Source: an uncultured Planctomycetia bacterium (lineage in GTDB: Bacteria > Omnitrophota > Gorgyraeia > 2-02-FULL-51-18). From it: 64,000 bases of DNA. The notes beneath the pieces are model-generated. The model worked only from the letters and a program-made list of their open reading frames with translations, was not told where the DNA came from and made no database searches. The position numbers and the translations under genes are program-made. Below are positions 1 through 25,654 of the stretch, piece by piece; positions within the stretch are counted from its first letter, which is position 1, and every line of letters starts with the position of its first letter. Location of the stretch: contig CAZSGP010000001.1 in NCBI GenBank assembly GCA_964606485.1, positions 225,085 to 289,084 of the forward strand. Direction: 5' to 3'.

Positions 1-3000
1 TCGAAGTCCGGTTCGAACGGTCCGTGGATTCCAATTATGAACCCGATTTCCGGTTTGGCGAATATCCCGAACTCTGGTTCGCTGTCCTGGACAGTGCCCG
101 ATGATATCACCAACAACGCCTATGTGAAGGTAGACGCTGCATCCGGTCCCGCGGTGAGCACGAAATCTCCCGCACAATTTAAAATCATGGCGCGTTTTGT
201 CATCACGGCTCCCACCGGCGGCGCTGTTCTTCTGGCGGGTCAAGACCAAACGATTTCTTGGAATAAGTGGGGTTCTGCGGCAACCACGGTCAGAATTGAA
301 CTTGCGACCGATGGAAGTGGCAATCCTCCAACCTACAACAAAATTCTTGATTTGAGCGCGCCGGCCGGAACGAGCACAGGCTCTTATAACTGGGCTGTCG
401 ATAACCCTGTGTCAGCAGCCAATAACGTAACGCCCACTGCGCGTCTAAGGATATACGACACAACCGACATTGACAGCGCGGCAACTTCTTCTAGTAATTT
501 CATCATTCGCGCAAGCTTTACGATGAGCCCGCTGATCGGAAGCGTTCCGCTCAAAGTCGGTGACACTTACGACGTGGTTTGGGCTAAAGTCGGTAATATT
601 CCTCAAGTCCTATTGCAGTATTCTCCGTTTAACAACTTTGGTGTCGATGCCCGCAACATTGAAGGTTCTGCGGCGGGCCTTGTGGCGAATGTGGGAGATT
701 CGGGCAAAGGAGATGGGCCTAACACCGCTCGCTTTGTGTGGACGGTACCGGACATCGACCCGGCAGAAGCTGACCATGTTTACTTGCGCGTTTCGGATCC
801 GAACGACTCCGGCGCCAAGAGCGTTTCCAACGAATTTATGATCAAGCCGAAGTTTACCGTAACTTCTCCGAATGGAAATGCGGATCCGAATCTTGCCGAA
901 AAATGGAAAGTAGGTATTTCTTATCCAATTACCTGGACGAGCTCCTCTGCTTTAGTGAATACGCCCACTGTAAAAGTTTCGTACTCCATAACCGGCGGCG
1001 CCTCATGGGTTCCTATTGCTACCGTTAGCAATAACGGGACCCGCAATTGGACGGTTCCGGATGCAATTTCGGAAGACGCTAAAATCCGCGTGGAAGATGC
1101 CAATGACGCCACGGCCTTCGATGATTCCAATGAAAATTTCAAAATCATCTCCAATTTCACTTCGATGGCGCCCAATGGCGGGCAGGTTCTAACGGTGGGC
1201 GACCTCACGCCGATCACATGGGGTTATCAGGGAACGGTGTCGAATGTAGAATTGTCTTACTCCACAGCAGGCTCCGATTTTTCTGCGGCGACTATTTTTG
1301 TTCCGTTTACGCAGGCGAATAATATTTCAACAAATCCGAATAATGGATCTCTGCCGAGCCAATGGACTGTGCCGGATGCGATTGGCTACAACACTAGAAT
1401 CAGAGTGAAGAGCTTTAATGACGACGGATACATTATTTCCGCGAGCGATTTCAGAATTAAAGGTAAGATCGAATTTAACTACGGCCAAGCTCCGCTTTCG
1501 GCCCCCATTTTGAGCGAGCCGGTGCCGATCGGTCAGCCCTACACGATTAAATGGAAAACAACCGGCACTATTCCTAACGTGAAGATTTTATATGATGTGA
1601 ATGACGGCAACGGAGCCGACAATAATCCCGGCACCGGAGACGAATTCTTGGGTGTCATCACAAATTCTGTTGCGAACACCGGCTCCTATGTATGGCCGGC
1701 TGTACCCGACCAAGGAACGGCATTTGCCAAAATTCGTGTGATCGATGCGCGTGTCGCTGAGGCAGACGTAATGGGCGATTCGGCCAAATTCAATATCGTG
1801 GGTAATTTGAGTGTGGTGACTCCAGCCGGCGCTGAAGCGTGGAAAGTGAATACGGCTCAGCAAGTCACATGGCATTGGGGCGGCACGATTCAACGCATTA
1901 AAGTTTCTTACACGACGAATCCAGCGGTGCTGGCATCCGATTCCAACGCTTGGACAACGGTCGAGACTATTGATTACGGCGCCAATAGCGGAAATGGAAA
2001 TAACGGTGCCGATCTTAGAACCTACAACTGGGCAATTCCGGACAGCATTTCACCGACGGTGCGCGTGAAAGTTGAAAATGCGGATGATTCGTCGGTATAC
2101 AGTGTGTCTCAGACCTTCAAAATCGTTGGTTCATTTAGAATCACCGCTCCAAATGGAAATGCGGATGTGACGCTGACCGATCGCTGGGTGACGAACGATG
2201 TATGGAATATTACTTGGGAAACCAACGGTAATATTCCGGCCGTCAAACTTCAATATTCCAATGACAATTTTGTGAGCGATATTCACGTCATCGACAATGC
2301 CGCTCCAAACGTACCCAATGGTTATTCAGGCGCTTATCCCTATGTCAGCAGCTATGCATGGCAAATTCCTGACGTGGTTCTTAAAGATGTCGGAGGCGCA
2401 TACACCGGACCCAATTTGGTGAAGGTCAGAGTGATTGACGCCAATGACGCGGCGGTGACCGATGTCTCCGATGATCCCTTCAAGATTGATTACTACAAAG
2501 TGACGTGGTTGTTGCGCGACTTGTCAACCTTTAAAGTTTTAACGGAATTGGGTGTCAAAGAGGTGAAATCATCAGACGCTAATTTCGTTCAATGGGTCGA
2601 GGCTGGTGTGGCTCAAGAATCTGCTCCCGGCGTATTACCTCCTTATAACCGCATTCAACCAACTCCGGCGGGGAGCTGGCTAGCCACATGGACTAAGACC
2701 GGTTATGGCGATGTGTCTCAGCTTGTGCTCTTAAACAAGAATCAACCGACGCTAGATCCGAAATATGTTATTTTCATGGAAACGACGGCCGTGCACATTT
2801 ATTTGGCCGAATCCAAATACAGCTTTGATCCGGGTAACAGCACGGTGATCCCGGCAATTCCGACTAAACTCGATATTATTGGTTGGCTCTCTCGTGACGG
2901 CGCCATCATCTCGGGTGTGGTGAACGCCAAAGTCGAAATTTACGACGGCACGACGCTAGTTGGAGGCGCGGCTATTCCTCTAGCGAAAGTGTTGGATGCC

Positions 3001-4188
3001 GGCACCGGAGCGGATACAGGCCTTTGGAATGCGAGCCGAACCAACGTAACGATCGCACCAATGAGCTTGCAGGCTGGTAAAACCTATATCGGCAAATGCT
3101 ACATGCAGATTGCAAGCCAAGTCGACGAAGACGTGTGGTATCAAACGCCGTCTGCGTTTGAAATCACCGCGTCCGTGAAACTTGAAGAGGTGAGAGCGAC
3201 CGTTGAGAAAAATATCGATAAACCGCTGTCACAATTCGCCACTGAAATGCAAGCGACTTTGGATAATCAGACGACCACTCTAACATCCAAGTTAGATGCT
3301 CAAACGGTAACTATACAGAGCACTCTGGATGCTCAGACTCAAATTATCACGTCCGCCATCACAGACTTTAATAATAGCGTCGCTAGCGCTATCACGGATC
3401 TCAATACGGCGGCCGATCGAAGCTTGGACGCGGCGGAAAACTTGGAAGACACGGCCAACAAATTTTCATGGAAAGCCGTTGTGGCTCCAAACCCGGCTCT
3501 CACCGGTGACTCGGTGATGTTGCAGGCGCAGGGACCGCCGAATCTCAAGCCGATTGTCAGTGTTTATAACAACACGAACAAGCAGGTTATTGCCGCGGCC
3601 ATTATGGAAGAAGAGTCTTTGCGCCCGGGCAATTACAGCTACACCTTTAAAGCCATGTCCTCAAGCTTCACTCCTGGTCAAGCGTATACGTACATTGTGA
3701 CGGAAGACGTCACGGGTGGTTTGGTGGCCGGTTCCGGATTCGTTGAAAGTATTTCGCTGACTGCCGTTGCCGGCTTGGCTAGCGCCGCACCTGCCGCTGA
3801 AAAAGCAGCCAAAGAAGCTGTGGAAGCCATCAAAGAACTTGAAACCACTATGGCTCGCGGCGGTGATTTGAAGAAAGCCCTTGTGAATTTACAGCGCTCC
3901 GTTGATTCCCTGCCGGATCAAGTCAGCAAGGTGAGCGGAGACACCAAGGGCGTTCGCTCTGCGGTGAACGAAATTTCCACTCGCTTGCAACAGCTCGCCG
4001 GAAACCAAGGGCTCGACTTTACTCAACTTTTTGCAAAAGCATTGGACGAAAATGCTAAAATAGAAGACATTCGCACCCGTTCCGGTGCCATTGTGAATTC
4101 ACTGGAACTCTTGGGGGCGATCGTCGAGAAGAGACTGGGTGGCGGCGACGAGCCGATTGTAGCGACCTTCCTGGAAGCTGCATCTTAA
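1..4188 (+). CDS. Giant secreted/cell-surface protein, 5'-truncated at the window edge. It has >=9 tandem ~90-100 aa Kre9/KNH-like (PF10342-like) beta-domains and a C-terminal coiled-coil region.
   Basis: The ORF is open to position 1 (first Met at 37). A recurring module reads 'F.I...F.ITAP.GG..L..G....ITW.......V.I.YS..G..W..I......W.VPD.IS..A.IRV.D.ND....D.SNE.FKI', with W(T/A)(V/I)PD motifs seen about 9 times. The C-terminal third has heptad-like 'LDAQT' repeats and a Lys/Ala/Glu coiled coil. Confidence 0.6.
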   Translation, partial: SKSGSNGPWIPIMNPISGLANIPNSGSLSWTVPDDITNNAYVKVDAASGPAVSTKSPAQFKIMARFVITAPTGGAVLLAGQDQTISWNKWGSAATTVRIELATDGSGNPPTYNKILDLSAPAGTSTGSYNWAVDNPVSAANNVTPTARLRIYDTTDIDSAATSSSNFIIRASFTMSPLIGSVPLKVGDTYDVVWAKVGNIPQVLLQYSPFNNFGVDARNIEGSAAGLVANVGDSGKGDGPNTARFVWTVPDIDPAEADHVYLRVSDPNDSGAKSVSNEFMIKPKFTVTSPNGNADPNLAEKWKVGISYPITWTSSSALVNTPTVKVSYSITGGASWVPIATVSNNGTRNWTVPDAISEDAKIRVEDANDATAFDDSNENFKIISNFTSMAPNGGQVLTVGDLTPITWGYQGTVSNVELSYSTAGSDFSAATIFVPFTQANNISTNPNNGSLPSQWTVPDAIGYNTRIRVKSFNDDGYIISASDFRIKGKIEFNYGQAPLSAPILSEPVPIGQPYTIKWKTTGTIPNVKILYDVNDGNGADNNPGTGDEFLGVITNSVANTGSYVWPAVPDQGTAFAKIRVIDARVAEADVMGDSAKFNIVGNLSVVTPAGAEAWKVNTAQQVTWHWGGTIQRIKVSYTTNPAVLASDSNAWTTVETIDYGANSGNGNNGADLRTYNWAIPDSISPTVRVKVENADDSSVYSVSQTFKIVGSFRITAPNGNADVTLTDRWVTNDVWNITWETNGNIPAVKLQYSNDNFVSDIHVIDNAAPNVPNGYSGAYPYVSSYAWQIPDVVLKDVGGAYTGPNLVKVRVIDANDAAVTDVSDDPFKIDYYKVTWLLRDLSTFKVLTELGVKEVKSSDANFVQWVEAGVAQESAPGVLPPYNRIQPTPAGSWLATWTKTGYGDVSQLVLLNKNQPTLDPKYVIFMETTAVHIYLAESKYSFDPGNSTVIPAIPTKLDIIGWLSRDGAIISGVVNAKVEIYDGTTLVGGAAIPLAKVLDAGTGADTGLWNASRTNVTIAPMSLQAGKTYIGKCYMQIASQVDEDVWYQTPSAFEITASVKLEEVRATVEKNIDKPLSQFATEMQATLDNQTTTLTSKLDAQTVTIQSTLDAQTQIITSAITDFNNSVASAITDLNTAADRSLDAAENLEDTANKFSWKAVVAPNPALTGDSVMLQAQGPPNLKPIVSVYNNTNKQVIAAAIMEEESLRPGNYSYTFKAMSSSFTPGQAYTYIVTEDVTGGLVAGSGFVESISLTAVAGLASAAPAAEKAAKEAVEAIKELETTMARGGDLKKALVNLQRSVDSLPDQVSKVSGDTKGVRSAVNEISTRLQQLAGNQGLDFTQLFAKALDENAKIEDIRTRSGAIVNSLELLGAIVEKRLGGGDEPIVATFLEAAS

Positions 4189-4213
4189 GGATTGATAAAT
4201 TGAGGGTGAATGA

Positions 4214-5002
4214 ATGAACGCTCGAAAAATTCTTCTGCTTACTTTATTCACAGCGCTTGTAGCTTCGTGGGCCGCTCACGAAGCTTATTCGGCGAGTGTT
4301 AAAATGAGAGTCGTGGTCGTTAATCCTTCCGATAAAAAAGAGCAAACCAAGTCCGTTCGCACTGAACTGCCGAAGGAAGTGAAGCAGAAAGACATTTTAG
4401 ATGCCGGTGGATTGGACATAGAGTACGATACCGAAAAGGGCGCTTTTTATGCCTCCAAAAATGACATTCCGCTAGCTCCTCTCGAGACTAAAATTTTTGA
4501 AATTGTCATGAACGACGTTTGGATTTGGCCTAAGGAAAACCTCGATTTCTTCCGTGAACAAACCAAAAAAATTGTGGCCAAATTAAAAGACACGTCGTTT
4601 GGCGAGCAGGCTGAACTCATCGCTAAAACCATTTATGGGCGTCTGGATGAAATTGAAACCAATCAGAACGATCAAAATGTTTCGCGTCAGCAGCACGTGG
4701 CGTATTTCCGCGAAGCCAATAAGACCATTGAGTCGGTGAAGGCGGATATCGAGCGACTGCAGAAACTGCTGATCACAGCAGGCGGCACGCCGAATCTCGA
4801 TCTTGTCGAAAACGCTGACGTGAAACTCAAATCCCCCAATACCAAAACGACCTGGATCGTTATCTTTGCCGTGATCTTGTTCGTCGCGATCTTGAGCGGC
4901 ACGTTTTACTTTACGTGGCTCAGGCAGTCCAGTAACTCGGACGCAGTATTTAAAAAAGAAAAAGACGCTTCTTTCGCTGAATTCAAACCCAAAAAAGAAT
5001 AG
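4214..5002 (+). CDS. Hypothetical exported protein with an N-terminal signal peptide and a C-terminal transmembrane anchor.
   Basis: The N-terminus 'MNARKILLLTLFTALVASWAAHEA' looks like a signal peptide. A single hydrophobic segment 'TTWIVIFAVILFVAILSGTFYF' lies near the C-terminus, followed by a Lys-rich tail. There is an 8-bp gap to the downstream epsilon gene. Confidence 0.45.
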   Translation: MNARKILLLTLFTALVASWAAHEAYSASVKMRVVVVNPSDKKEQTKSVRTELPKEVKQKDILDAGGLDIEYDTEKGAFYASKNDIPLAPLETKIFEIVMNDVWIWPKENLDFFREQTKKIVAKLKDTSFGEQAELIAKTIYGRLDEIETNQNDQNVSRQQHVAYFREANKTIESVKADIERLQKLLITAGGTPNLDLVENADVKLKSPNTKTTWIVIFAVILFVAILSGTFYFTWLRQSSNSDAVFKKEKDASFAEFKPKKE

Positions 5003-5009
5003 CGTATAA

Positions 5010-5255
5010 ATGGCGCTGACCCCGATTGAGGTGAAAGTCTTAAGTCCTCAGCGGCTCATTTTTGAAGGGCAAGCAAAGAGCATCATTCTCCCGGGAGAAT
5101 CGGGTGTTTTTGAAATTGCCCCGCATCACAAGCGTTTACTTTCCAGATTATTAGGCGGTTTTGTCATTATTGACAATAAGCGCATGTCGATTAAGCGCGG
5201 TGTAGTCAAGGCAGGCTTAAACAAAGTGACAATTATCGTTGAAGAAGATGATTAA
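5010..5255 (+). CDS. atpC: F-type ATPase epsilon subunit, N-terminal beta-sandwich domain only (81 aa). The C-terminal helical hairpin is absent.
   Basis: 'LTPIEVKVLSPQRLIFEGQAKSIILPGESGVFEIAPHHKRLLSRLLGGFVII' matches the epsilon consensus (LxVVTPE...PG..G..GILP.HAPLLT.L.PG.V.I). The protein stops after ~80 aa, with no helical domain. Confidence 0.7.
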   Translation: MALTPIEVKVLSPQRLIFEGQAKSIILPGESGVFEIAPHHKRLLSRLLGGFVIIDNKRMSIKRGVVKAGLNKVTIIVEEDD

Positions 5256-6804
5256 AAAAAACGCTCCGGTTATATTTATTTTTTTGATGGGGATTGGCCT
5301 TTATGTCAATTCTCTCTGCGGCCCATTTATCTATGACGATCTAGAGCTCGTCCGGAACAACGGCAAACTCCAAAGTTTCCAGGCTCTTTCGCAATCCTTT
5401 AAGCAGGATATTAATTTATCGACGGGCCGGACCGGTTTTTTTTACCGGCCCTTTCTTCAGGTGACTTATGCCTTGGACAGTCATTTTTGGAAGGGAAGGG
5501 TTTATGGGTATCATGCCACGAGCATTGTGCTTCACGCGCTTGCGGCTTTGGCGCTCGCTTCTTTAATTTTCATTCTTTTTGGAGATAAACTCGTCGCGTT
5601 TTTAACAGCTCTTTTGTGGCTCGTGCACCCTGTGCATACCGAAGCTGTTTCTTATATTTCAGGACGCGCCGATCCTCTGGCAGCACTCCTACTTTTGTTG
5701 GCGCTTATTTTTTATGTGAGGGGAGACTATGCACACCGGCTGCGAAATCTTTCCCTGCTCATCATTTTTTATGCGCTTGCACTCCTATCTAAAGAACATA
5801 GCCTTATTTTTTTAGCCCTGATCGCTCTCGTTCATCTTGTTTTTAAGAAGCGAATTCAGTGGCCGGCGCTAATTGCGGTAGCGACACTTTCTCTTTTTTA
5901 CGGTTTTTTACGATTTTCTCAGTTACAGACCTTGCTTTCAAATCCTCTCAATCCCAGTACACTTGCGGAGCGTTTACCCGGTTTTTTTGTGGCAGTTGCT
6001 AAATATTTCAAACTTCTCGCGTGGCCTACGAATCTGCGAATGGAGTATGGCCTAAAAATATTCACATTTGCGGACCCTAGAGCCATAGTGGGGGTTGGTA
6101 TTTTAGCGGCCCTCTTTGCCTCTCTCTATTTTTTAAGAAAAAACCGTGTCTGGGTTTTTGGAATCGGCTGGTTTCTCATCACACTTTTACCGGTATCCAA
6201 TCTTTTTCCCATCAATGCATTTATGGCGGAGCACTGGCTCTATCTGCCCTCAATGGGGCTATGGCTCGCTTTTGCCGGCTTATTTTCAAGGGTGCTCCAG
6301 TCTCGCAAGCGTCTAGTTGCGGCACTCGCTTTGGCTGCACTCGCTTCGATGTATAGCCAGGCGACAATGGCTCAAAACAGTTATTGGAGTGACGCGGTAC
6401 TCTTTTACGAACGCACGTTGAAATTTGAACCCAATAATGCGCGCATGTGCAATAACCTCGCCGGAGTTTACAAAGATAGGGGAGACTTTGAGAGCGCAAA
6501 AACTTTCTACCAAAAAGCAATTACCATTGATCCGAATATTGCCGATGTTTATTTTAATTTGGGGACGATTTACGCTCAGGAGAATGATTTGGGAACAGCC
6601 ATGGATTGTTACCAGAAAACCGTTGAGCTGAATCCCAATTTTGCGCTGGCCTACAACAACATGGGCGCGCTTTACCAGGCGCACGGTCAAAATGAGCTCG
6701 CTTTGCTACAATACGAAAAGGCACTAAAACTCAATCCAAACTACAAGCGAGCCGCTGAAAATCTTTCAAATATTAAAATGAGATTGGGGAAGAGCAATGG
6801 ATAA
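5239..6804 (+). CDS. TMTC/PMT-like GT-C family membrane glycosyltransferase (DUF1736-type) with C-terminal TPR repeats.
   Basis: About 10 predicted TM helices. 'FIYDD' acidic motif in loop 1 and 'HPVHTEAV' motif. The C-terminus has about 4 TPR units ('NNLAGVYKDRGDFESAKTFYQKAITIDPN...'). The start overlaps the atpC stop by 17 nt and the stop overlaps the atpE start by 8 nt. Confidence 0.7.
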   Translation: MKKMIKKNAPVIFIFLMGIGLYVNSLCGPFIYDDLELVRNNGKLQSFQALSQSFKQDINLSTGRTGFFYRPFLQVTYALDSHFWKGRVYGYHATSIVLHALAALALASLIFILFGDKLVAFLTALLWLVHPVHTEAVSYISGRADPLAALLLLLALIFYVRGDYAHRLRNLSLLIIFYALALLSKEHSLIFLALIALVHLVFKKRIQWPALIAVATLSLFYGFLRFSQLQTLLSNPLNPSTLAERLPGFFVAVAKYFKLLAWPTNLRMEYGLKIFTFADPRAIVGVGILAALFASLYFLRKNRVWVFGIGWFLITLLPVSNLFPINAFMAEHWLYLPSMGLWLAFAGLFSRVLQSRKRLVAALALAALASMYSQATMAQNSYWSDAVLFYERTLKFEPNNARMCNNLAGVYKDRGDFESAKTFYQKAITIDPNIADVYFNLGTIYAQENDLGTAMDCYQKTVELNPNFALAYNNMGALYQAHGQNELALLQYEKALKLNPNYKRAAENLSNIKMRLGKSNG

Positions 6805-7015
6805 AAATGTCGCTATTATTTTGGTCTTCACGCTTTGCATTTTGGGGCCAACCGCCATTATTGCCGCGGCAGGGCATGCCAGTATTTCAGCTCTCGGCCG
6901 TAATCCCTCGGCCGCTCCCAAGATCTTTACCGCTATGACGATGATGCTCATCTTTGGCGGTATGATTTCCATTGTGGCTCTGCTTGTTCTTTTTCAGCTT
7001 TACGCTACCAAATAA
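6797..7015 (+). CDS. atpE: F-type ATPase subunit c-like proteolipid (72 aa helical hairpin). It apparently lacks the conserved ion-binding Glu/Asp in helix 2.
   Basis: Two hydrophobic helices joined by the polar loop 'ALGRNPSAAPK' (compare the conserved c-subunit 'ARQP(E/D)' loop). Helix 1 is Ala/Gly-rich ('IIAAAGHASISALG'). It sits directly upstream of the b/delta gene. No acidic residue occurs anywhere in helix 2 ('IFTAMTMMLIFGGMISIVALLVLFQLYA'). Confidence 0.6.
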   Translation: MDKNVAIILVFTLCILGPTAIIAAAGHASISALGRNPSAAPKIFTAMTMMLIFGGMISIVALLVLFQLYATK

Positions 7016-7074
7016 AGACAGCCCCCCTCCTTGCTTTTTTTGTTAATTTTTGTTAAAATTTAGATAAAATTTAA

Positions 7075-7151
7075 TGTCATTGCGAGGAGCTTTTGCGACG
7101 AAGCAATCTAGATTTTAGAGCGAGATTGCTTCGCTGACGCTCGCAATGACA
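7075..7151. repeat. Copy 1 of a ~77-bp palindromic intergenic repeat (REP/MITE-like double-stem hairpin).
   Basis: tgtcattgcgag...gaagcaatct..agattgcttc...ctcgcaatgaca. The outer 12-bp and inner ~10-bp inverted repeats are shared with copies at ~22234 and ~25578. Coordinates are +/-2 nt. Confidence 0.75.
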
Positions 7152-7165
7152 AATAGGGGAGTTCG

Positions 7166-7894
7166 ATGCTATTTTTAGTTCTAGTGGTTATTCAGCTCGT
7201 CATCTTCGGTGTCCTGATTTTTCTCCTTAAAAACGTCCTCACCCGCAATGTCCGCACGGCGACCGCGCACCTGAATGAGTTGAACCAAGACTACACTCAA
7301 AAAATGGACGAAGCCAATAAGCGCATGCACGAAGCGGAAAAATTTTACGATGACGCGATTTTGCGATCCAAGACCGATGCCGAACGAGCAAAAATGGAAA
7401 TTTTAAAAGAGGCGCGGTCGCAAGATGAGCAGATTGTAGGGGATGCGCGAAAACAAAGCACCGAAATTTTGGAGCAGGCGCGCCGCGCGCGGGATCTCAT
7501 GATTGAAGAGATTGAACAGAAAATTGAAGTCCGCGCTGTTGAAAGGGCGAGCGAGTTTCTGGCTCAGATCCTTCCTTCTGAAATCAGTATGGATATGCAC
7601 ACTAAATGGACCGAGCAAATCCTTAAAAAAGGATTTTCGGATTTGTCGCGCATGAATTTTCCGGACGGGGAGCTCAAAGTAAAAATTATTTCGGCTTACG
7701 AATTGACAGCGGATCAAAAATCTCAAATCGAAGAAATTCTCCGCACCGCGCTCAAGCGTGAATTTTCTCTGGAAACAGCGTCCGACGTCAGTTTGGTTGC
7801 CGGTATCCAGGTAACAGTGGCCAGTATCGTGATTGACGGAACACTGAAATTTAAGATCCGGGAGATAGCCCGCCGTGCCCAACGAACTGAATAA
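7166..7894 (+). CDS. atpFH: Compact F-type ATPase b-delta fusion stator subunit. It has an N-terminal TM helix, a b-like coiled coil and a delta/OSCP C-terminal domain.
   Basis: N-terminal TM 'LFLVLVVIQLVIFGVLIFLL'. A charged coiled coil typical of subunit b. The C-terminus 'LVAGIQVTVASIVIDGTLKFKIREIARRA' matches the delta C-terminal consensus (LLGGV.V.IGD.VIDGSVRGRLERLA). At 242 aa it is too short to contain a delta N-terminal domain. Confidence 0.7.
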   Translation: MLFLVLVVIQLVIFGVLIFLLKNVLTRNVRTATAHLNELNQDYTQKMDEANKRMHEAEKFYDDAILRSKTDAERAKMEILKEARSQDEQIVGDARKQSTEILEQARRARDLMIEEIEQKIEVRAVERASEFLAQILPSEISMDMHTKWTEQILKKGFSDLSRMNFPDGELKVKIISAYELTADQKSQIEEILRTALKREFSLETASDVSLVAGIQVTVASIVIDGTLKFKIREIARRAQRTE

Positions 7895-8028
7895 TTGGCC
7901 GAAAAAGCCCATCTGCTGCGTTGCTCTCTGCGCTTCCTCAGTCGACGTACGTAAGCGTACGCCTTCTTCGGTCGCTTGGTCGCGCCTTGCATATAGGCTT
8001 TTTGGACCAATTATTGAAGACGGTGAAA

Positions 8029-9501
8029 ATGGCTCCTGATACGACTACGGCGCAGTTTGAAATGCGCGAAGTAGGGCATTTAAAATCCATTAAGCGCTTT
8101 ATTGCTGTGACCGACGACTTGAACTCCTGTATCAATGGCCAGCTCGTGGAGTTTGAAAAAGGAGCGCGCGGCATTGTCATGGGATTTACACACGACAAAA
8201 TTCAAATTTTAGTTCTAGGGCCCACCCAAGGAATCCGTTTGGGGGACGAAATTTATAATCGCGGCGAGTCCTTCAATCTCCCAGTGGGTGAAAAATTTAA
8301 AGGCCGCGTGGTGACCGCTCTCTGCGAGCCAGCGGACGGGCTCGGACCCATTCATGCAGATGACCGGTACCCGGTTTTTCAAGACGCACCCGGCATTATT
8401 GACCGCGAACAGCTCACCGAAACCATGGAAACCGGAACATTTGCGCTCGATGCCGGTATTCCTATTGCCAAAGGACAGCGCCAGCTTTTAATCGGCGACC
8501 GTGGAACGGGAAAAACAACAATCGGCATTGACGCCATTCTCAATCAAAAGGGAAAAGGTGTTATCTGTATTTATTGCGTGATTGGGAAACCGTATTCGAG
8601 CCTTGTCAAAACCTTAGGTCTCCTTCATGAACAGGGGGCGATGGAGCACACGATTGTCGTGAGTGCGGTCGCATCGACCTCTCCTGGTGAGCAGTACATC
8701 GCGCCGTACACTGCGGCGATGCTGGGCGAATATTTCATGAAATCCGGTCGTGATGTGCTTTGCATTTTTGACGATCTCACGAAGCACGCGTGGGTTTACC
8801 GACAAATTTCACTGCTCCTCGAGCGACCTCCGGGTCGCGAAGCGTATCCGGGTGACATTTTTTATATTCACTCTCAACTTTTAGAGCGCGCCGGGCGATT
8901 CACCAAAGATTTAAAGGGCGGTTCGATGACATTTTTACCGATTGTCGAAGTGCTGCAGGGGGACGTGACGGGTTACATCCCCACCAATATTATTTCCATC
9001 ACCGACGGGCAAACGTATTTTTCGACGAACCTTTATAACAAAGGCCACAAGCCCCCGATCGATTTCGGTTTGTCGGTGTCGCGTATTGGAAATAAGGGAC
9101 AGTGGTCGGCCATGAAAGACGTGTCGAAGAGTCTCCGCTTGGAATACCTTCAGTACCAGGAAATGCTTCAGATGACTCAGCTTCGCTCCGGAGGCCTTTC
9201 AAAAGACTCGGAGGCGCGTTTAAAGCGCGGGGAAGCGCTGACGCAGCTTTTAGTGCAGACCAAAAATAAACCGGTTTCTATTCCAGAACAAGTGTTTTTT
9301 TTAATTGCGCTCGGAAAAGGGGTTCTTGACCCGCTTCCTGCGGCACAGATCAAAAAATTTAAAGTGGAAATTTCCGACTTCGTCGATAAAAAAGACCCTG
9401 CAATTTTAAAAGAGCTCAACGAAACAAAAAAACTAACGGACGCAAACAAAGAAAAAATCGTGAACTGTTTAAAGCAGTATTTTGAAAGCGTGGGAGGCTA
9501 A
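8029..9501 (+). CDS. atpA: F-type ATPase alpha subunit.
   Basis: P-loop 'GDRGTGKTTIGIDAILNQKG' and overall F1-alpha architecture. The internal Met at 8029 was chosen because the upstream 36 codons look non-native. Confidence 0.9.
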   Translation: MAPDTTTAQFEMREVGHLKSIKRFIAVTDDLNSCINGQLVEFEKGARGIVMGFTHDKIQILVLGPTQGIRLGDEIYNRGESFNLPVGEKFKGRVVTALCEPADGLGPIHADDRYPVFQDAPGIIDREQLTETMETGTFALDAGIPIAKGQRQLLIGDRGTGKTTIGIDAILNQKGKGVICIYCVIGKPYSSLVKTLGLLHEQGAMEHTIVVSAVASTSPGEQYIAPYTAAMLGEYFMKSGRDVLCIFDDLTKHAWVYRQISLLLERPPGREAYPGDIFYIHSQLLERAGRFTKDLKGGSMTFLPIVEVLQGDVTGYIPTNIISITDGQTYFSTNLYNKGHKPPIDFGLSVSRIGNKGQWSAMKDVSKSLRLEYLQYQEMLQMTQLRSGGLSKDSEARLKRGEALTQLLVQTKNKPVSIPEQVFFLIALGKGVLDPLPAAQIKKFKVEISDFVDKKDPAILKELNETKKLTDANKEKIVNCLKQYFESVGG

Positions 9502-10358
9502 TGCTCCCAGCAACGTTCATCAAGCGGCAGATTGATTTCAATAAACAATTCCGCTCGCTCTTGGACGTGATGAAACTTGTGGCCGTATCCCAGTACCATA
9601 TTTTGGAAAAAAAGCTTCAGTATTTTGATTTGTTCGGTGAAGTGCTCACAGAGTTTTTTGATTCGATTGATGTGAGCCGTGTGAATCACCCTTTTTTAAA
9701 CGGGGGAGACAAGCCGGTAGGGGTTTTGGCGATCACGTCCGACGGGGGACTTTTAGGTGGCATGAACATGCAGGTCATTGCAAAGGCGGTGGATATTTTG
9801 TCGCGTCAGCCAGGAAAGCTGATCATCGTGGGGGAACGTGGACAGATTTATGCGCAGGGTTTTGGAATGTCCTTCACCTACTTTACCGGGATCATCGACA
9901 ACGAGCGCTACGCGCAGGCGATGACGGTGCGGGATTATGTGACGCAGGAAATTTTAAATGGAAATTTAGGGGGATTAAAAGTGGTGTTTCCGAGAGCGTT
10001 GTCGCTCGTGATGAATAAAATTGAAGTCGAGACGCTCGTACCCTTTACGCGTAAAGACGCCGAGGGTGCCGCGCCTAAAACTGGCGGAAGTCTAGCGCAA
10101 GTGATTTTAGAAACGCGCCCTGAAGACATTGCGGAATACTTGGTTTACTTGTACGTAGGGGAGCGGCTATACGAAGTGTTTGGCATGGCGCGACTCGCCG
10201 AACAAGCGGCACGTTTTGTGCACTTGGAAGAAAGCTGTCAAAAAATTCAGGATATGAACAATAAATTGCTCCTTCAGTATTTTAAACGACGTCATGAAAT
10301 TATCGATTCCAATATGCGCGAACTTTTTTCCGCAAAGAAAGCTTATGCCGATGGCTGA
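9501..10358 (+). CDS. atpG: F-type ATPase gamma subunit.
   Basis: 285 aa, gamma-like N- and C-terminal helices ('...LYVGERLYEVFGMARLAEQAARFVHLEES...'). It overlaps the alpha stop by 1 nt and the beta start by 8-14 nt. Confidence 0.8.
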   Translation: MLPATFIKRQIDFNKQFRSLLDVMKLVAVSQYHILEKKLQYFDLFGEVLTEFFDSIDVSRVNHPFLNGGDKPVGVLAITSDGGLLGGMNMQVIAKAVDILSRQPGKLIIVGERGQIYAQGFGMSFTYFTGIIDNERYAQAMTVRDYVTQEILNGNLGGLKVVFPRALSLVMNKIEVETLVPFTRKDAEGAAPKTGGSLAQVILETRPEDIAEYLVYLYVGERLYEVFGMARLAEQAARFVHLEESCQKIQDMNNKLLLQYFKRRHEIIDSNMRELFSAKKAYADG

Positions 10359-11757
10359 GGATAAGAAAATTTTAACGCCGGGAAAAGTAGTGGGTGTTCA
10401 AGGTCCCGTGGTGGACGTGCGGTTTACCCTTCAAAAGGACGTGCCCGATATTTACAACGTCATTCATGTTCAGTCCATGGACAACCGAAAAGTAACGCTT
10501 GAAGTCGTGGAGCATTTGCCTGGAAATTTAGCGCGCTGTATCGCCATCGAATCCACTCAAAATCTTCAGCGTTTTGCCGTGGGCCAACCGTCTGGAAAAC
10601 CCGTTGAAATTCCGGTCGGGGACTGTCTTTATACGCGCTGCGTGAATGTGCTCGGCCAGCCCATCGACAAAATGGGTCCGATTGAGTCTAATCTTTACAT
10701 GCCTATCCGCCGGCCGGAGTCGGGCACGCGAGTTCCGGACTTTAGTAAACAAAAGCGCCGTGGCGAAGAAGTGCTAGAAACGGGTATTAAAATTATCGAT
10801 CTGCTTTACCCGCTCGTCAAAGGAACAAAAACGGGGATCTTAGGGGGAGCGGGTCTTGGAAAAAGCGTTATCACGCTCGAAGTCATTCACCACGTCGTGC
10901 AAAAACATCAGGGTTCGTGCGTTTTTGCGGGTATCGGAGAGCGCTTGCGCGAAGGAAACGAACTTTTTTATGAACTGCGTGAACATGATCTTCACACCAA
11001 AACCATGCTCGTGTTTGGACAGATGAATGACCCGCCCGGCGCGCGTTTCGGTGTGGCTATGACCGGAATCACCATGGCTGAAGCCGTGCAAAAACAAAAC
11101 AAAGACGTGATCTTCTTTGCCGACAACGTGTTTCGTTTTATTCAAGCCGGAGCCGAAATTTCGACCCTGCTTGGCCGCGTGCCGTCCGAAACAGGGTATC
11201 AACCGACACTCATTTCCGAGTCGAGCGAATTTCATGAACGCATCCGCGAAGGGCAGGGCACCGGCGGATCGATCACCTCTATTGAAGCCGTTTACGTTCC
11301 CGCCGACGACATGACCGACCCTGCCGTCGTGGCCATCTTCTCATTTTTAAATTCTTTAATGGTGCTTTCCCGCGAACGCGTGCAGATGGGACTTTACCCA
11401 GCGATTGACCCGCTTCAATCGTCCTCGTCTAATTTAGATCCGGACGTGGTGGGCCAGCGCCATTACGACGCCTCCCAAGAAGTTATGCGCGTGTTCCAAA
11501 AATACGAAGAACTCCGCCGCATCGTTATGGTGATCGGAATCGACGAATTGTCCAAAGCCGACCGTACGATTTACGAACGCGCCCGGAAAATGCAATTTTT
11601 TCTGACTCAGCCTTTCGCCGTAGCAGAACGCTACACCGGCAAAAAGGGCGAGCACGTCCCCATCCGCAACACGCTAGATGGCTGTGAAAGAATATTATCT
11701 GGTAAAATGGACCGCAAACCTGAGCAAGAGTTTTACATGATCGGATCATTGGTTTGA
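10351..11757 (+). CDS. atpD: F-type ATPase beta subunit (catalytic).
   Basis: Walker A 'GGAGLGKSV', 'VFAGIGERLREGNELF' and DELS motif 'DELSKADR'. The start is at MAEDKK (10351) or MPMAEDKK (10345). Confidence 0.9.
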   Translation: MAEDKKILTPGKVVGVQGPVVDVRFTLQKDVPDIYNVIHVQSMDNRKVTLEVVEHLPGNLARCIAIESTQNLQRFAVGQPSGKPVEIPVGDCLYTRCVNVLGQPIDKMGPIESNLYMPIRRPESGTRVPDFSKQKRRGEEVLETGIKIIDLLYPLVKGTKTGILGGAGLGKSVITLEVIHHVVQKHQGSCVFAGIGERLREGNELFYELREHDLHTKTMLVFGQMNDPPGARFGVAMTGITMAEAVQKQNKDVIFFADNVFRFIQAGAEISTLLGRVPSETGYQPTLISESSEFHERIREGQGTGGSITSIEAVYVPADDMTDPAVVAIFSFLNSLMVLSRERVQMGLYPAIDPLQSSSSNLDPDVVGQRHYDASQEVMRVFQKYEELRRIVMVIGIDELSKADRTIYERARKMQFFLTQPFAVAERYTGKKGEHVPIRNTLDGCERILSGKMDRKPEQEFYMIGSLV

Positions 11758-11776: not shown

Positions 11777-12232
11777 ATGCTTCTAGGAGAACGCTTAGTC
11801 AGACTCGGTAAAATTACCGAAGATCAATTGAATGAAGCGCTGACAGAGCAAAAAAATACGAGTGAGTTTTTGGGGAATATTTTGCTCCGGCGTGCTTGGA
11901 TTCGTGAAGACGACTTAACCGAAGTTTTATCCGAGCAGTTCGAGATGCCTTTTATGAAACTCAAGAACGAGTATCTTGACTGGAATTTGATTTTGACATT
12001 TTCGTCAACACTTGTCGTAGAACACAAATGCGTCCCCTTTCGAAAAGACGAAAAAGGGTACACGGTTGCGATCACCAATCCTTTAGACGCGATGGCTATC
12101 AGTGAGGCAGAGAAGCTGGCGCAAAGGGGAGACCGGGTTTCGATTGTTTTGGTGACGCCCAGTCAGATGCATACGGTGATTCGTGAGTATCAAAAACGTT
12201 TATCCGATAAAATAAAAGGACTATTGGGGTAA
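11777..12232 (+). CDS. Stand-alone MshEN/T2SSE_N domain protein (GspE N-terminal domain, a likely c-di-GMP-binding module).
   Basis: 'LGERLVRLGKITEDQLNEALTEQ' fits the MshEN motif RLG..L(V/I)..G.I....L..AL..Q. A good RBS lies 20 nt after the atpD stop. Confidence 0.65.
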   Translation: MLLGERLVRLGKITEDQLNEALTEQKNTSEFLGNILLRRAWIREDDLTEVLSEQFEMPFMKLKNEYLDWNLILTFSSTLVVEHKCVPFRKDEKGYTVAITNPLDAMAISEAEKLAQRGDRVSIVLVTPSQMHTVIREYQKRLSDKIKGLLG

Positions 12233-12238
12233 AAGCGC

Positions 12239-14404
12239 GTGATTACTAAAATTGACACCACGCTCGTCAAACTTCTCGTCGAAAAAAATTTAATCGACCA
12301 GGAAACACTTTCGCCCTTTATCGAAGAAGCGGGAAAATCCAAAGACAATCTTTATGTGCTCCTTTTGCGCTCCGGAAAATTTCCAGAAGAGCGTTTGCTT
12401 TTAGGGCTTTCAGAGGCAATGAAAGTTCCGCTGGTGGAGCTTGGGTCTAAGCAGCCGGACACCACGGTGATTGAAAAAGTACCGCTTAAGATTGCCGAGT
12501 ACTATAAACTCGTTCCGCTCAAAATCGAAAATCGAAGGCTCACTATTGCCATTTCAGCGCCCTTTGATGTCCGCACCCAAGATGACATTCACACTCATTT
12601 GGGCTTTGATCTGGACCTGGTTTTAGCCAGAGAGAAAGATGTCTTAGACGCCATTAAACGTTTCTACGGATTCGCGACCGGAACCATCAATGAAATGATC
12701 GCGTCCGGTTCAGATATTGCGACAACCCTGCCGGACCGCGCTTTTGAAGCCGTGGAAAACATTGAAAAGCTCGCCGGTGACGCATCGATTGCAAAGCTTG
12801 TGAATCAGATTATTCTAGAGGCATTTCGAAAACGCGCGACCGATATTCACTTAGAGCCTTACCGCGGAAAAGTAAAACTACGCTACCGCATTGACGGCAC
12901 GCTGTACAACGCGAACGTTCCGCCTGAAATTGGCCGTTTTATTTTGCCTATTTTGTCGCGCATTAAAATCATGTCGAATTTAAACATCGTCGAAAAACGT
13001 CTCCCGCAAGACGGGCGCGCGATTGTAAAAATTGAAGACACTCAGCTTGACCTTCGCGTGTCCTCGATCCCCACGCCTTACGGCGAAAGTGTGGTGGTGA
13101 GAATGCTCCCCATGAACCGCGTGATCAGTCTCACTCAACTCGGGCTCGGCAACCGGGAACTCAATTTATTTCAGACGATGATTAAAAAACCACACGGAAT
13201 TATTTTTATCACGGGTCCGACCGGCAGCGGAAAAAGCACGACTCTTTACGCGTGTCTCAATCAGCTCAACTCCGACGACCGGAAAATTATCACGATTGAA
13301 GATCCGGTTGAATACGAAATGGAGGGCGTCACTCAAATTCAAGTGGCCGGCAACATTGGCCTTGATTTTGCAAAAGGTTTGCGCAGTATCCTGCGTCATG
13401 ACCCAGACGTCATCATGGTGGGAGAGGTTCGCGATCTCGAGACTGCTGAAACAGCCATCCGCGTCGCACTCACCGGACATCTTGTTTTTTCAACGCTTCA
13501 CACCAACGATTCGGCAAGCTCTGTTACGCGTTTAGTGGATATTGGTGTTGAGCCGTATCTTGTTTCCTCGAGCGTTGAAGCGTTTATTGCTCAGCGACTT
13601 GTGCGAACGATTTGTTCGCATTGTAAACAAGAAGACAAGACGATGACGCAGTACGAAGCCAAAAAATTAATCGCCAAAGAAACGGACACCAAAGTAGACG
13701 ATGTGCGGCTTTTTTATGGCAAAGGATGCAATCAGTGCAATAACACTGGCTTCTGGGGACGCGTGGCCATTTATGAAATTCTTCTCATGAACGACAAGTT
13801 GAGAGATCTTGTGATGCAGAAAGCGTCGGCGGAAGAAATTAAAAAACTAGCCGTGGCTCAAGGCATGCGCACGCTTCGCCAGGATGGTTGGGAAAAAGTG
13901 TTGGCCGGTGTCACGACGCCGGAAGAAATTTTAAAAGTAGCCCCGGCAGATAAGGCAGGGGAGATTCTCTCGCCCGAACTTAGATCTGAAGAACCCGTTT
14001 CCACGAAGGAAGCAGCGGAAAATATTATTTCCCGTTACAACGATCGCCGTCAATTTGAACGCTTAAAAGACACGGTGAATATTCGTTACCGGATTATCAA
14101 ATCCAAAGACCCGATTCGCAAAATGGCTCCGAGCTCCGAAGAGTACACCGTCACGAAAGACGTGTCTGCGGGCGGACTACTGCTTGTCACGCGAGAAAGT
14201 ATTCCGGTCGGATCGATACTCGAGCTAAAAGTAGAATTGCCCGACGGACCCCCAGCTATTGAATGTTTAGCGAAGGTGATGCGCGAAGAGGAGCTCGTCA
14301 AAGAAAATATGTTTCAGCTCGGCATTTGCTTTTTAGATCTCACGGGTTCTCAGCGAGCGCGTTTGTTCAAGTATGTTGAGACGGAAGGCGGAGTGGCCGC
14401 ATGA
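12239..14404 (+). CDS. gspE: Type II secretion / type IV pilus assembly ATPase (GspE/PilB family) with a C-terminal PilZ domain.
   Basis: T2SSE_N N-terminal domain. Walker A 'GPTGSGKST', Walker B 'DPDVIMVGEVRD', His-box 'LVFSTLHTNDSAS' and tetracysteine 'CSHCK...CNQCNNTG'. C-terminal extension with PilZ motifs 'DRRQFER' and 'DVSAGGLLL'. Probable GTG start. Confidence 0.9.
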   Translation: MITKIDTTLVKLLVEKNLIDQETLSPFIEEAGKSKDNLYVLLLRSGKFPEERLLLGLSEAMKVPLVELGSKQPDTTVIEKVPLKIAEYYKLVPLKIENRRLTIAISAPFDVRTQDDIHTHLGFDLDLVLAREKDVLDAIKRFYGFATGTINEMIASGSDIATTLPDRAFEAVENIEKLAGDASIAKLVNQIILEAFRKRATDIHLEPYRGKVKLRYRIDGTLYNANVPPEIGRFILPILSRIKIMSNLNIVEKRLPQDGRAIVKIEDTQLDLRVSSIPTPYGESVVVRMLPMNRVISLTQLGLGNRELNLFQTMIKKPHGIIFITGPTGSGKSTTLYACLNQLNSDDRKIITIEDPVEYEMEGVTQIQVAGNIGLDFAKGLRSILRHDPDVIMVGEVRDLETAETAIRVALTGHLVFSTLHTNDSASSVTRLVDIGVEPYLVSSSVEAFIAQRLVRTICSHCKQEDKTMTQYEAKKLIAKETDTKVDDVRLFYGKGCNQCNNTGFWGRVAIYEILLMNDKLRDLVMQKASAEEIKKLAVAQGMRTLRQDGWEKVLAGVTTPEEILKVAPADKAGEILSPELRSEEPVSTKEAAENIISRYNDRRQFERLKDTVNIRYRIIKSKDPIRKMAPSSEEYTVTKDVSAGGLLLVTRESIPVGSILELKVELPDGPPAIECLAKVMREEELVKENMFQLGICFLDLTGSQRARLFKYVETEGGVAA

Positions 14405-15654
14405 TTTATTCGTACCGGGCTAAAAAAGGGCCCAAAGAGCTCGTAGAAGGAACGATAGAAGCGCTGACTGTCGAGGATGCGATTGAGCGGCTCAGCGAAA
14501 AAGGGCTTTTGCCAATCGACGTTCAAGAAGCTAAAGTTCAAGCGGTCGAAGCGCCGAGTCCCCGCGCATCGACGAAGCCTTTACCGCGCAGTCAGCCGGG
14601 CCGCATTACACTTTTTGGAGGGATACGGTCGTCCGAGATCACTGTTCTTTCCCGGCAATTGGCGAGCCTGCTCAAAGCGGGCGTGCCTATTTTGCAAGGT
14701 CTTTGGATTTTGTCCGAACAAACTCAAAATCCGAAACTTAAAAAAGTTTTGACGCACATTCAAGAAGAGGTTAATAACGGTAAATCTCTCTCAGCGATTT
14801 TTTCGCTCTACCCAAAATATTTTCCTCCTATTTACATTGCCATGATTCGCACCGGAGAAGATAGCGGCACGCTTGACTCGGCCCTTTCTCGAATTGCCGA
14901 ATACCGCCGCAAACAGGAAGAAATGCGCTCGCGTGTTCTTTCGGCGATGGCGTACCCGATTCTCATGGCCATCACCGGAGCGGGAACCGTGATATTTATG
15001 CTCACGTTCGTGATTCCAAAGCTAACCAAACTATTTGCAAATTTAGGCCAGAGTCTGCCGGCTCCCACGCGCATTCTGATGACGATGAGTGAATTTTTAA
15101 AACAGCCGGCATTTTGGGGTGTGATCGGCATTCTTGTTGTGGCATTTAATTTATGGGTAAGACTTGCTCCGCAAATGGCACGCGCGGCGTGGAGCGCATT
15201 TAGTTTGAAATTGCCCATCATTAAAGGATTTGTGATGAAATCCGAGATGGCGCGTTTTTCAAGAACCATGGAGCTTCTTTTAAAATCGGGCGTCACGGTT
15301 TTAAGAGCCATTGAAATTACGACGCCGGTTTTAAAGAATGTAATTTTGCGCGCTGAATTTTCAAAGGCCTACCAATCCATCACCGGGGGAGGGTCGCTCG
15401 GAAAATCTTTAAAGGAATCCAAAATAGTGCCGATGTTTGTTTCAAACCTGATCTCGATTGGCGAAGAATCCGGAAAATTAGACGACACAATGAGCGAAAT
15501 CGCGGACTTATATGAACGCGAAACCGACGAGGCGATCCGCGTGATGACCTCGCTGATGGAACCGCTGATGATTTTAGTGATGGGCGGCATTGTGGGTTTT
15601 ATTGTGATTGCGATGATGTTGCCGATGTTTGAATTGAATATGGCAGTTAAATGA
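14401..15654 (+). CDS. gspF: T2SS/T4P platform protein (GspF/PilC family).
   Basis: Duplicated GspF domain architecture with three TM segments. The 4-nt start/stop overlap with gspE is typical. Confidence 0.9.
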   Translation: MIYSYRAKKGPKELVEGTIEALTVEDAIERLSEKGLLPIDVQEAKVQAVEAPSPRASTKPLPRSQPGRITLFGGIRSSEITVLSRQLASLLKAGVPILQGLWILSEQTQNPKLKKVLTHIQEEVNNGKSLSAIFSLYPKYFPPIYIAMIRTGEDSGTLDSALSRIAEYRRKQEEMRSRVLSAMAYPILMAITGAGTVIFMLTFVIPKLTKLFANLGQSLPAPTRILMTMSEFLKQPAFWGVIGILVVAFNLWVRLAPQMARAAWSAFSLKLPIIKGFVMKSEMARFSRTMELLLKSGVTVLRAIEITTPVLKNVILRAEFSKAYQSITGGGSLGKSLKESKIVPMFVSNLISIGEESGKLDDTMSEIADLYERETDEAIRVMTSLMEPLMILVMGGIVGFIVIAMMLPMFELNMAVK

Positions 15655-16535: not shown

Positions 16536-16948
16536 TGATGAAGAACAATAAAAGTGGTTTTACCCTGATCGAATTGATGCTCGTGGTTATTATTATCGGC
16601 GCGCTCGTGGCGATGGTGATGCCGCGTTTAGCCGGTCGTTCCGAGCAAGCCAAAACAGCGGCCGCTCAAGCGGATATCAGTGCCAATATTGCAACCGCTC
16701 TCAAGTTGTACGAGCTCGATAACGGGCACTATCCCGGAACGGATGAGGGCGGACTAAGCGCGCTGCAAACCAAGCCCGGCAACGCTAATAATTGGAAGGG
16801 TCCTTATATTGAAAAGAAGCCTCTGGATCCATGGGGCCGTGAATATCAATACAAGTGTCCGGGCCAACACCGCACTTATGATTACGATCTCTATTCTCTG
16901 GGTCCTGACGGCCAGGAAAGCACGGATGATCCCAAAAACTGGCAATAA
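16532..16948 (+). CDS. gspG: Major pseudopilin (GspG / type IV pilin-like).
   Basis: Class III signal 'KSGFTLIELMLVVIIIGAL' with G|F cleavage and Glu+5. C-terminal GspG-like 'GPYIEKKPLDPWGREYQY'. Confidence 0.85.
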   Translation: MMMKNNKSGFTLIELMLVVIIIGALVAMVMPRLAGRSEQAKTAAAQADISANIATALKLYELDNGHYPGTDEGGLSALQTKPGNANNWKGPYIEKKPLDPWGREYQYKCPGQHRTYDYDLYSLGPDGQESTDDPKNWQ

Positions 16949-17321
16949 GGGGTTTACGCTCGTTGAGCTGATGGTCACGGTGTCCGTTTTGTCTTTGGGC
17001 CTCGTGCTTATCAACGGGTCTTTGCTTCGGATTGCGGACTTGCTAAGCCGCTACAATAATTCACTTGCAGGTTACCGCTGGATGAACGAAAAAATCTGGG
17101 AGTCCAAAGAAGCTTTGTTTTATTCTGAGGAGCCCTCTTCCAGTACCAGTGGTACTGGTGTGATGTCCTTAAACCGAAAGGATGCTTATTGGGTGTTGAG
17201 AGATGAAGATGTTGCCGGTGCCAAAGGAACGCATCTGCTCGACTTGTCTCTCGGGTGGCAACAGGGGCAGGAATTTATTAAGATTACGAAAACGTGTTAT
17301 GCCTCCAGGTCGACGACCTAG
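16926..17321 (+). CDS. Minor pseudopilin (GspH/I-like).
   Basis: 'NKGFTLVELMVTVSVLSLGL' prepilin signal. The internal Met start overlaps the gspG 3' end. Confidence 0.7.
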   Translation: MIPKTGNKGFTLVELMVTVSVLSLGLVLINGSLLRIADLLSRYNNSLAGYRWMNEKIWESKEALFYSEEPSSSTSGTGVMSLNRKDAYWVLRDEDVAGAKGTHLLDLSLGWQQGQEFIKITKTCYASRSTT

Positions 17322-17916: not shown

Positions 17917-17919
17917 GGC

Positions 17920-22233: not shown

Positions 22234-22309
22234 TGTCATTGCGAGCGAAGCGAAGCAATCTCGCTTTTAAGAGCATGATTGCTTCGTCGCTGCGCTTCTC
22301 GCAATGACA
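22234..22309. repeat. Copy 2 of the ~77-bp palindromic intergenic repeat.
   Basis: tgtcattgcgagcgaagcgaagcaatctcgc...gattgcttcgtcgctgcgcttctcgcaatgaca. It lies between divergent genes. Confidence 0.75.
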
Positions 22310-25577: not shown

Positions 25578-25654
25578 TGTCATTGCGAGGAGCGAAGCGA
25601 CGAAGCAATCTCGTTTTTAAAATCAAGATTGCTTTGCTAGCGCTCGCAATGACA
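25578..25654. repeat. Copy 3 of the ~77-bp palindromic repeat, starting immediately after the purC stop codon.
   Basis: tgtcattgcgaggagcgaagcgacgaagcaatctcg...gattgctttgctagcgctcgcaatgaca. Confidence 0.75.

Follow-up and report, generated by a model that had tools for sequence, protein, structure and literature searches.

Analysis of the window, the whole stretch of 64,000 nucleotides (nt) of contig CAZSGP010000001.1 whose positions are used throughout, indicated that genes for F1-like ATPase subunits and type IV pilus components are clustered on the + strand in the order giant protein, 262-amino-acid protein (p262), epsilon, c, b/delta, alpha, gamma, beta, MshEN, PilB/GspE-PilZ and PilC/GspF. 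Between epsilon and c stands a gene for a predicted membrane glycosyltransferase of the GT-C fold carrying a C-terminal tetratricopeptide repeat (TPR) domain. This gene is the subject of the present report, and comparison with related clusters suggests that it was inserted in this lineage.

The GT-C/TPR gene and its product

The open reading frame (ORF) on the + strand extends from a TTG at 5239 to 6804, between the epsilon-like and c-like genes, where the original prediction had placed it. The second in-frame start is the ATG at 5248, which is the start in the public gene calls of two assemblies; these give an identical protein, P0001, of 518 amino acids (aa), so that the gene is taken as 5248..6804, while the TTG at 5239 would give 521 aa. 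The epsilon stop codon (5253-5255) is overlapped by 17 nt, the figure first proposed, if the TTG is used, but by 8 nt (ATGATTAA) with the ATG of the gene callers. Some overlap with epsilon is robust for either start, since the next in-frame ATG would truncate the first transmembrane (TM) helix. At the other end the stop codon (6802-6804) lies inside the c gene (ATG 6797), an overlap of 8 nt as predicted, and the c start is secure because the N-terminus 'MDKNVAII' lines up with those of about 60 homologous c subunits. Since stop and start codons overlap on both sides, co-transcription with epsilon and c is likely, as the original prediction of co-expression would have it, and translational coupling is possible; both statements are read from the arrangement of codons inside the operon. 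A promoter and terminator consensus scan of positions 4000-8200 revealed nothing above chance, internal promoters and terminators included.

The membrane domain of the protein (5248..6390, + strand) has 11 predicted TM helices in a GT-C fold and is followed by the TPR domain (6394..6783, + strand; Pfam TPR_1, TPR_11 and TPR_2). In the AlphaFold2 model (predicted local distance difference test score, pLDDT, 92; predicted template modelling score, pTM, 0.91) 11 long helices precede the helical repeats, and Pfam places three to four TPRs at residues ~398-512 (TPR_1, E 2.6e-27), within a domain of about four repeats that spans residues ~383-512. Short loops rich in K/R (MIKKN, KKRIQ, LRKN, QSRK) lie on one side of the membrane domain, while the long loops on the opposite side hold conserved acidic residues. 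The N-terminus is accordingly predicted to be cytoplasmic, and the TPR domain is placed outside, in the periplasm, because the number of TM helices is odd; the C-terminal periplasmic repeats first proposed agree with this predicted topology.

The motif 'FIYDD' directly after TM1 (D30-D31, nt 5335-5340) and the motif 'HPVHTEAV' (residues 127-134, nt 5626-5649) were both read in the sequence, as had been claimed. The GT-C motifs of the protein are DD 30-31, YRP 66-68, HPVHTE 127-132, RAD 140-142, KE 182-183, (R)MEY 264-267 and EHWLY 328-332. Alignment of 58 homologs revealed that both D30 and D31 are invariant, and that 81 of the 87 positions conserved in >=88% of the family are kept in the window copy, including the invariant D30, D31, R67, E183 and E328. 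The six departures are Q70L, F124W, F148L, Y195V, H264R and F339W.

NCBIfam and Pfam scans of the protein returned only TPR models and no family for the TM domain. A sequence profile of the TM domain searched against all PDB chains gave zero matches at E<=10, and a full-length profile and Foldseek, both run against PDB, gave results swamped by TPR proteins. The GT-C assignment rests on fold and motifs because no Pfam GT-C model matches. On that predicted basis the description of the protein as a GT-C fold with TMTC-like architecture appears essentially correct; the TMTC/PMT-like enzyme first proposed is thus upheld by fold and motifs and finds no counterpart in the Pfam models DUF1736 and PMT_2.

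The motifs were compared with those of the TMTC proteins by inspection against the published table (M1-M7: DD, SHKSYRP, RxD, KE(T/Q)xxT, DW, ERxxY; Eisenhaber et al., PMC7801869), not by a scored alignment. By this inspection M1 to M4 and M7 are nearly collinear with the residue numbers of human TMTC3: DD in the first outer loop is D31/D32 in TMTC3 and D30/D31 in the window protein, YRP is 70-72 and 66-68, the HP[VI]HT at the end of TM3 is HPIHT at about 130-134 and HPVHT at 127-131, RxD is R143/D145 and 140/142, and KE is K188/E189 and 182/183. E-x-x-x-Y before TM10 is common to TMTC and the window protein, and M5 of the latter is plausibly MEY. TMTC1-4 have, as here, 11 TM helices and then a non-cytoplasmic TPR domain. 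The window protein differs from them in M7, where the strictly conserved Arg (ERxxY) is His (EHWLY), in having about four TPRs only, unlike TMTC1-4, and in the TM7-TM8 loop, where the DUF1736 model (PF08409), matched by human TMTCs at E<1e-30 (PMC7801869), is unmatched. It is moreover bacterial, unlike TMTC, so that the donor would be a polyprenyl-phosphate sugar. The sequence identity to PMT/POMT and ArnT, whose GT-C structures are solved, is 10-13%, and the MIR domain of PMT/POMT is lacking. Pfam PMT_2 (PF13231) finds no match in the window protein and a weak one in about 10% of its homologs, being precomputed for ~12 of the 120 best. A literature search turned up nothing specific on TMTC-like enzymes of the Omnitrophota or on a coupling of bacterial TMTC homologs to ATPases.

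The epsilon-c junction in related clusters and the homolog family

Since the original prediction proposed a functional link between the glycosyltransferase and the ATPase, the presence of the gene in related operons bears directly on it. With alpha as the probe, two sets of 80 loci were fetched, one from species-representative genomes and the other from metagenomes, a few contigs being in both, and all window proteins were mapped onto their ORFs. About 130 loci are of this cluster type; they come from Omnitrophota and from metagenome-assembled genomes (MAGs) labelled Lentisphaerae, Kiritimatiellae, Victivallales, Planctomycetia and Nitrospirota. The cluster order is syntenic across these lineages: giant protein, p262, epsilon, c, b/delta, alpha, gamma, beta, (MshEN), PilB, PilC.

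Epsilon and c were both visible in 58 genome loci and 48 metagenome loci (106), and c comes after epsilon at a distance of -136 to +247 nt in 103 of these 106. In the genome set the distance from epsilon to c is -11 to +247 nt in 56 of the 58 and 454 nt in L022, and a distance of 1541 nt was found only in the window's own sequence. The metagenome set showed distances of <=222 nt in 45 of the 48; b/delta stands between epsilon and c in two of the exceptions, and the third has an 815-nt gap without a GT-C match. No GT-C gene was found at the epsilon-c junction of the related loci, and in all fetched loci the GT-C TM domain matched only the window's own sequence and one further locus, L003. The closest relative with a visible junction, L002 (alpha 76%, beta 82% and epsilon 76% identical), has an epsilon-c spacer of 80 nt and a Shine-Dalgarno sequence of its own (GGAGG) before c, while epsilon and c abut in L085 (alpha 74%).

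Relatives whose operon lacks a GT-C gene keep the giant protein, p262, ATPase and pilus genes. Because these orthologous operons, L002 among them, lack the gene, the proposed functional link to the ATPase is not supported, and the coupled arrangement itself is absent from the junction in related loci. The gene would be dispensable for the ATPase-like machine, since the machine is unchanged without it in about 100 genomes.

Searches with the TM domain revealed >1386 homologs (E<=1e-3), almost all from Omnitrophota MAGs, 38-47% identical and usually named 'tetratricopeptide repeat protein'. The best non-self match to the window protein is 47% identical, and no close ortholog was found among 5.8 billion clustered proteins. 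GT-C/TPR paralogs are often in tandem with 4-nt overlaps (L083, L167), several contigs carry at least two copies, and the window's own 546-kb contig carries another, P0220. The six nearest homologs by score or tree (P0002, P0003, P0115, P0033, P0088 and P0046) all lie in contexts unrelated to the ATPase, their neighbourhoods being UvrD/PD-(D/E)XK, paralog arrays, GcpE, heptosyltransferase, PilZ and another paralog. Judged by these sequence comparisons, the window gene is one copy of a very large, fast-diverging Omnitrophota paralog family. In the Omnitrophota, TMTC-like periplasmic glycosyltransferases have expanded into a very large set that is uncharacterised and that the Pfam GT-C models largely miss.

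Insertion, recruitment and other explanations

We consider it probable, at roughly 0.7, that the window gene is a TMTC-like GT-C copy that was inserted in this lineage into a conserved F1-like ATPase/pilus cluster and is not a component of the ATPase. A copy of the paralog family would have entered the short epsilon-c spacer in the window lineage only, and would then have been co-transcribed, and perhaps translationally coupled, within the host cluster. From fold and motifs we infer for the protein an enzymatic activity with its donor and acceptors, and from the overlaps its co-expression. The donor would be a lipid-phosphate-linked sugar, as the predicted fold and the K182/E183 and E328 motifs suggest; the polyprenyl-phosphate sugar is most likely bound in a groove that the DD loop, K182/E183, the TM7-TM8 loop and E328 form together, and the sugar would be moved to Ser/Thr of secreted, periplasmic or envelope/surface proteins. 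The periplasm-facing TPR domain may recruit the acceptors, as proposed for TMTCs. By analogy with the cadherin immunoglobulin (Ig)-like domains on which TMTCs act, we take the giant Ig-repeat protein, p262 or the pilins to be reasonable candidate acceptors, and the window copy would offer a natural set of such candidates.

Several observations weigh against this reading. Residues 1-381 match no Pfam family even at E<=10, PF08409 (DUF1736) and PF13231 (PMT_2) included, and the nearly invariant His at position 264 is Arg in the window copy. The 8-nt overlap with each neighbour makes the gene look adapted rather than freshly inserted. Finally, L003 carries another GT-C/TPR gene directly upstream of b/delta, and the roughly 1.5 Mb of fetched flanking DNA holds no other member of the family beyond the window and L003 copies, so that chance placement must absorb two matches in the same kilobase of the same operon. 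This exceeds random expectation, and a modest probability is therefore kept on a local functional link.

The L003 contig (CAYJSE010000002.1; alpha 74% identical to that of the window) starts inside its GT-C/TPR gene, for which reason the epsilon/c region is not visible; a spacer of 160 nt and b/delta follow, with no c between. Its product and the window protein are 36% identical, a value below those of all the other 58 comparisons made with the latter, and the best identity of the L003 copy to any other protein is 41%, that is, it has no close ortholog. A neighbour-joining tree groups the two copies within one 6-member clade, yet only 12 of 200 bootstraps recover them as sisters. Judged by the identities of alpha, beta, gamma and b/delta, L003 is not a nearer relative of the window than L002 or L084 is, and in L084 the end of the c gene lies directly upstream of b/delta. 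The copies may derive from two independent insertions or from a single old one followed by losses and rearrangement.

A dedicated functional coupling would mean that the co-expressed GT-C enzyme O-glycosylates the giant protein, pilins or p262 during their export or assembly by the F1-like/PilB machinery. The place of the gene inside the operon, where its codons overlap those of both neighbours, favours it, as does the presence in both the window and L003 of a GT-C/TPR gene within 1 kb of c and b/delta; the 36% identity of these copies, from genomes that are not mutually closest, suggests two separate recruitments. Eukaryotic TMTCs act on cadherin Ig-like domains (PMC7801869), and the giant protein encoded upstream is built of Ig-like repeats. 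However, the 106 related loci retain the giant protein, p262, ATPase and pilus genes with no such gene at the junction, and neither operon-embedded copy has a close ortholog among the 5.8 billion proteins, so that we regard the coupling as unlikely. Had it held as first claimed, a new machine tying protein glycosylation mechanically or stoichiometrically to a rotary ATPase would have come to light; the comparative data do not support such a machine. A narrower version, in which TMTC-like enzymes were recruited twice into the operon core within one small sub-clade (window and L003) for built-in O-glycosylation of the giant adhesin or pilins, is doubtful; if true, the twofold recruitment would be a bacterial counterpart of the TMTC glycosylation of cadherin Ig-like domains.

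It is improbable that the operon carries a catalytically dead scaffold, that is, a decaying or non-enzymatic TPR membrane adaptor. Such decay could be read from the six substitutions at highly conserved positions (H264R and Q70L among them), from the TPR domain, the shortest of the family, from the branch of the window copy, its most divergent, and from the lack of a Pfam GT-C match. The frame is intact over 518 codons, however, the 81 positions kept of 87 include DD, RxD, KE and E328, and the predicted fold is confident and compact.

An artefact of assembly or annotation, by which a chimeric join or a mis-called ORF would have produced an arrangement unique to the window genome, is very improbable. 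An NCBI assembly (546-kb contig) and, separately, a Logan assembly of run SRR12487046 share the arrangement, each junction falls within continuous frames of conserved neighbours, and the termini of these match those of homologs; misassembly was rejected on the agreement of the two assemblies and the intactness of the flanking ORFs.

That the polytopic GT-C protein was co-opted as the membrane partner of the c-ring in place of subunit a is barely credible and was rejected, because the relatives lack both: atpB sits just before c in many F-type and N-type operons, the place held here by the GT-C gene, no ATP-synt_A (a subunit) was found among the large window ORFs scanned with Pfam and the c subunit has lost its carboxylate, but all of about 100 related clusters have neither an a subunit nor a GT-C gene, and the motifs kept in the protein are catalytic motifs of a glycosyltransferase and not features of subunit a.

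The host cluster and other features of the window

All genes of the host cluster described here are on the + strand. The conserved first gene (37..4188) encodes the C-terminal 1383 aa of a giant surface protein with Ig-like repeats and a weak Kre9_KNH Ig-like match; its homologs lead the cluster in most related loci, and the protein exceeds 2683 aa in L001. The original prediction described it as a giant Ser/Thr-rich protein encoded just upstream. The size stands, while the Ser/Thr content is moderate (S 8.6%, T 8.9%, 17.5% together) and the p262 gene (4214..5002) lies between the giant gene and epsilon. The p262 protein, with an N-terminal signal or anchor and a C-terminal TM helix, belongs to no Pfam family; across the cluster it is conserved, and many relatives (L004, L008, L010 and others) have it as a fusion with the giant protein.

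The epsilon-like subunit (5010..5255, 81 aa; PF02823, E 5.9e-13) consists of the beta-sandwich domain only, without the C-terminal helices. The c-subunit-like protein (6797..7015, 72 aa) matches PF00137 at E 5.5e-5 with 23.8 bits against a 24-bit cut-off. In the b/delta fusion (7166..7894; PF00213, E 9e-13) an N-terminal TM helix and a coiled coil precede the C-terminal part of OSCP, and TIGR03321 and b/delta models match it below cut-off. The F1 alpha-like subunit (7921..9501; PF00006, PF00306, PF02874; TIGR00962, 528 bits) has an uncertain start, TTG 7921 or ATG 8029. The F1 gamma-like (9501..10358; PF00231, E 1.2e-35) and F1 beta-like (10351..11757; PF00006, E 2.3e-66; 468 aa in the public gene call) subunits follow. 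The conserved downstream half of the cluster (11777..15654) encodes a MshEN-domain protein, a PilB/GspE-type ATPase with PilZ and a PilC/GspF platform protein, as indicated by Pfam (MshEN; T2SSE, E 1.7e-129; PilZ; T2SSF, E 6.9e-65) and by synteny in about 100 loci. PilB starts at 12239, and the block continues as far as about 20.4 kb with PilC, a peptidase, pseudopilins (16809-18933) and PilM/N.

Alignment with about 65 homologs revealed that the c subunit has Gly at the position of the ion-binding carboxylate ('IFGGMIS'). Among the window and the c genes of L002-L073 and L085-L150 this position is variable: most relatives have Glu and about ten have Gln, the window has Gly, L002 has Ser, and Ala, Phe or Met stand there in others. 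The subunit has a distinctive GRNPSAAPKI loop. Because the carboxylate is not conserved and no a subunit occurs in any cluster, these sequences suggest that the c-ring is not used for ion translocation. An ATP synthase operon was rejected, since no a subunit was found among the large window ORFs scanned with Pfam, epsilon is truncated, b and delta are fused and c has Gly at the carboxylate position. The 'ATPase operon' of the original prediction is borne out in so far as F1-like subunits flank the gene, but the operon is of a non-respiratory, pilus-associated type.

A non-respiratory F-type-like ATPase co-located with type IV pilus genes is described from Omnitrophota in 'symbiotic' loci (Seymour et al. 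2023, PMC10066038), and T2SS-like (type II secretion system) loci adjoin giant genes (West-Roberts et al.). The host operon, whose alpha, beta and gamma lie <10 kb from PilB, PilC and pseudopilins with giant ORFs nearby, fits the passages of PMC10066038 on the ATPase and type IVa pilus, and by these passages it is the non-respiratory F1-like ATPase/type IV pilus cluster of Omnitrophota already described. The words 'glycosyltransferase' and 'tetratricopeptide' occur 0 times in the passages, and they are silent on the absent a subunit, the variable c carboxylate and the giant-protein/p262 head of the cluster. The type 2 and type 3 F1-like ATPases of Mycoplasma (gliding motor, MIB-MIP) likewise have alpha- and beta-like subunits without a proton-conducting a subunit and serve purposes other than synthesis. 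Unlike them, the window operon keeps c, b/delta, gamma and epsilon. Its subunits match the NCBIfam gliding and MSC_0618/0619 models below cut-offs, and the canonical atpA/atpD models outscore the Mycoplasma-type ones. With its c-ring without subunit a, dispensable c carboxylate, conserved giant protein and PilB/PilC pair, the host cluster may be the more interesting object.

Variants of the cluster were observed among the related loci. In L045 alpha is fused with gamma (4050-6398) and beta with MshEN and a complete T2SSE/PilB ATPase (6358-9408; Pfam), each as a single ORF, while in L038 (3378-5585) and L040 (4083-6314) beta has a C-terminal DUF4388 extension. If they are not assembly errors, these fusions would point, by the Rosetta-stone argument, to an F1-like head and a PilB-type ATPase that work as a single physical unit. 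A variant with two tandem alpha-like genes (p262, alpha', alpha, epsilon, c, b/delta, gamma, beta) was found in L050, L054, L060-L068, L070, L140, L143, L146 and L149, mostly in MAGs labelled Lentisphaerae, Victivallales and Kiritimatiellae, and b/delta precedes c in L118, L125 and L131.

A dispersed palindromic intergenic repeat, TTGCGAG-N7-GCGACGAAGCAATC, lies at 22277-22304 (- strand) and 25583-25610 (+ strand); at up to 3 mismatches it has 2 matches where 0 are expected. Between c and b/delta (7076-7150) a more diverged copy, recognised by eye, would form a long hairpin inside the operon (-46.7 kcal/mol, z -3.4). Two stand-alone small TPR proteins (20948-21646 and 48753-49283, both - strand) are 33-38% identical to the TPR domain of the GT-C protein, and the former ends the pilus-like gene block and adjoins a cyclophilin. 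The region 34944-62169 begins with a tyrosine recombinase (34944-35858), followed by a heavy-metal resistance block with two RND pumps and their OEP and HlyD partners, a multicopper oxidase, HMBD domains, CDF, an ECF sigma factor and a P-type ATPase; the GC skew is higher in this region, which may be an integrated island.

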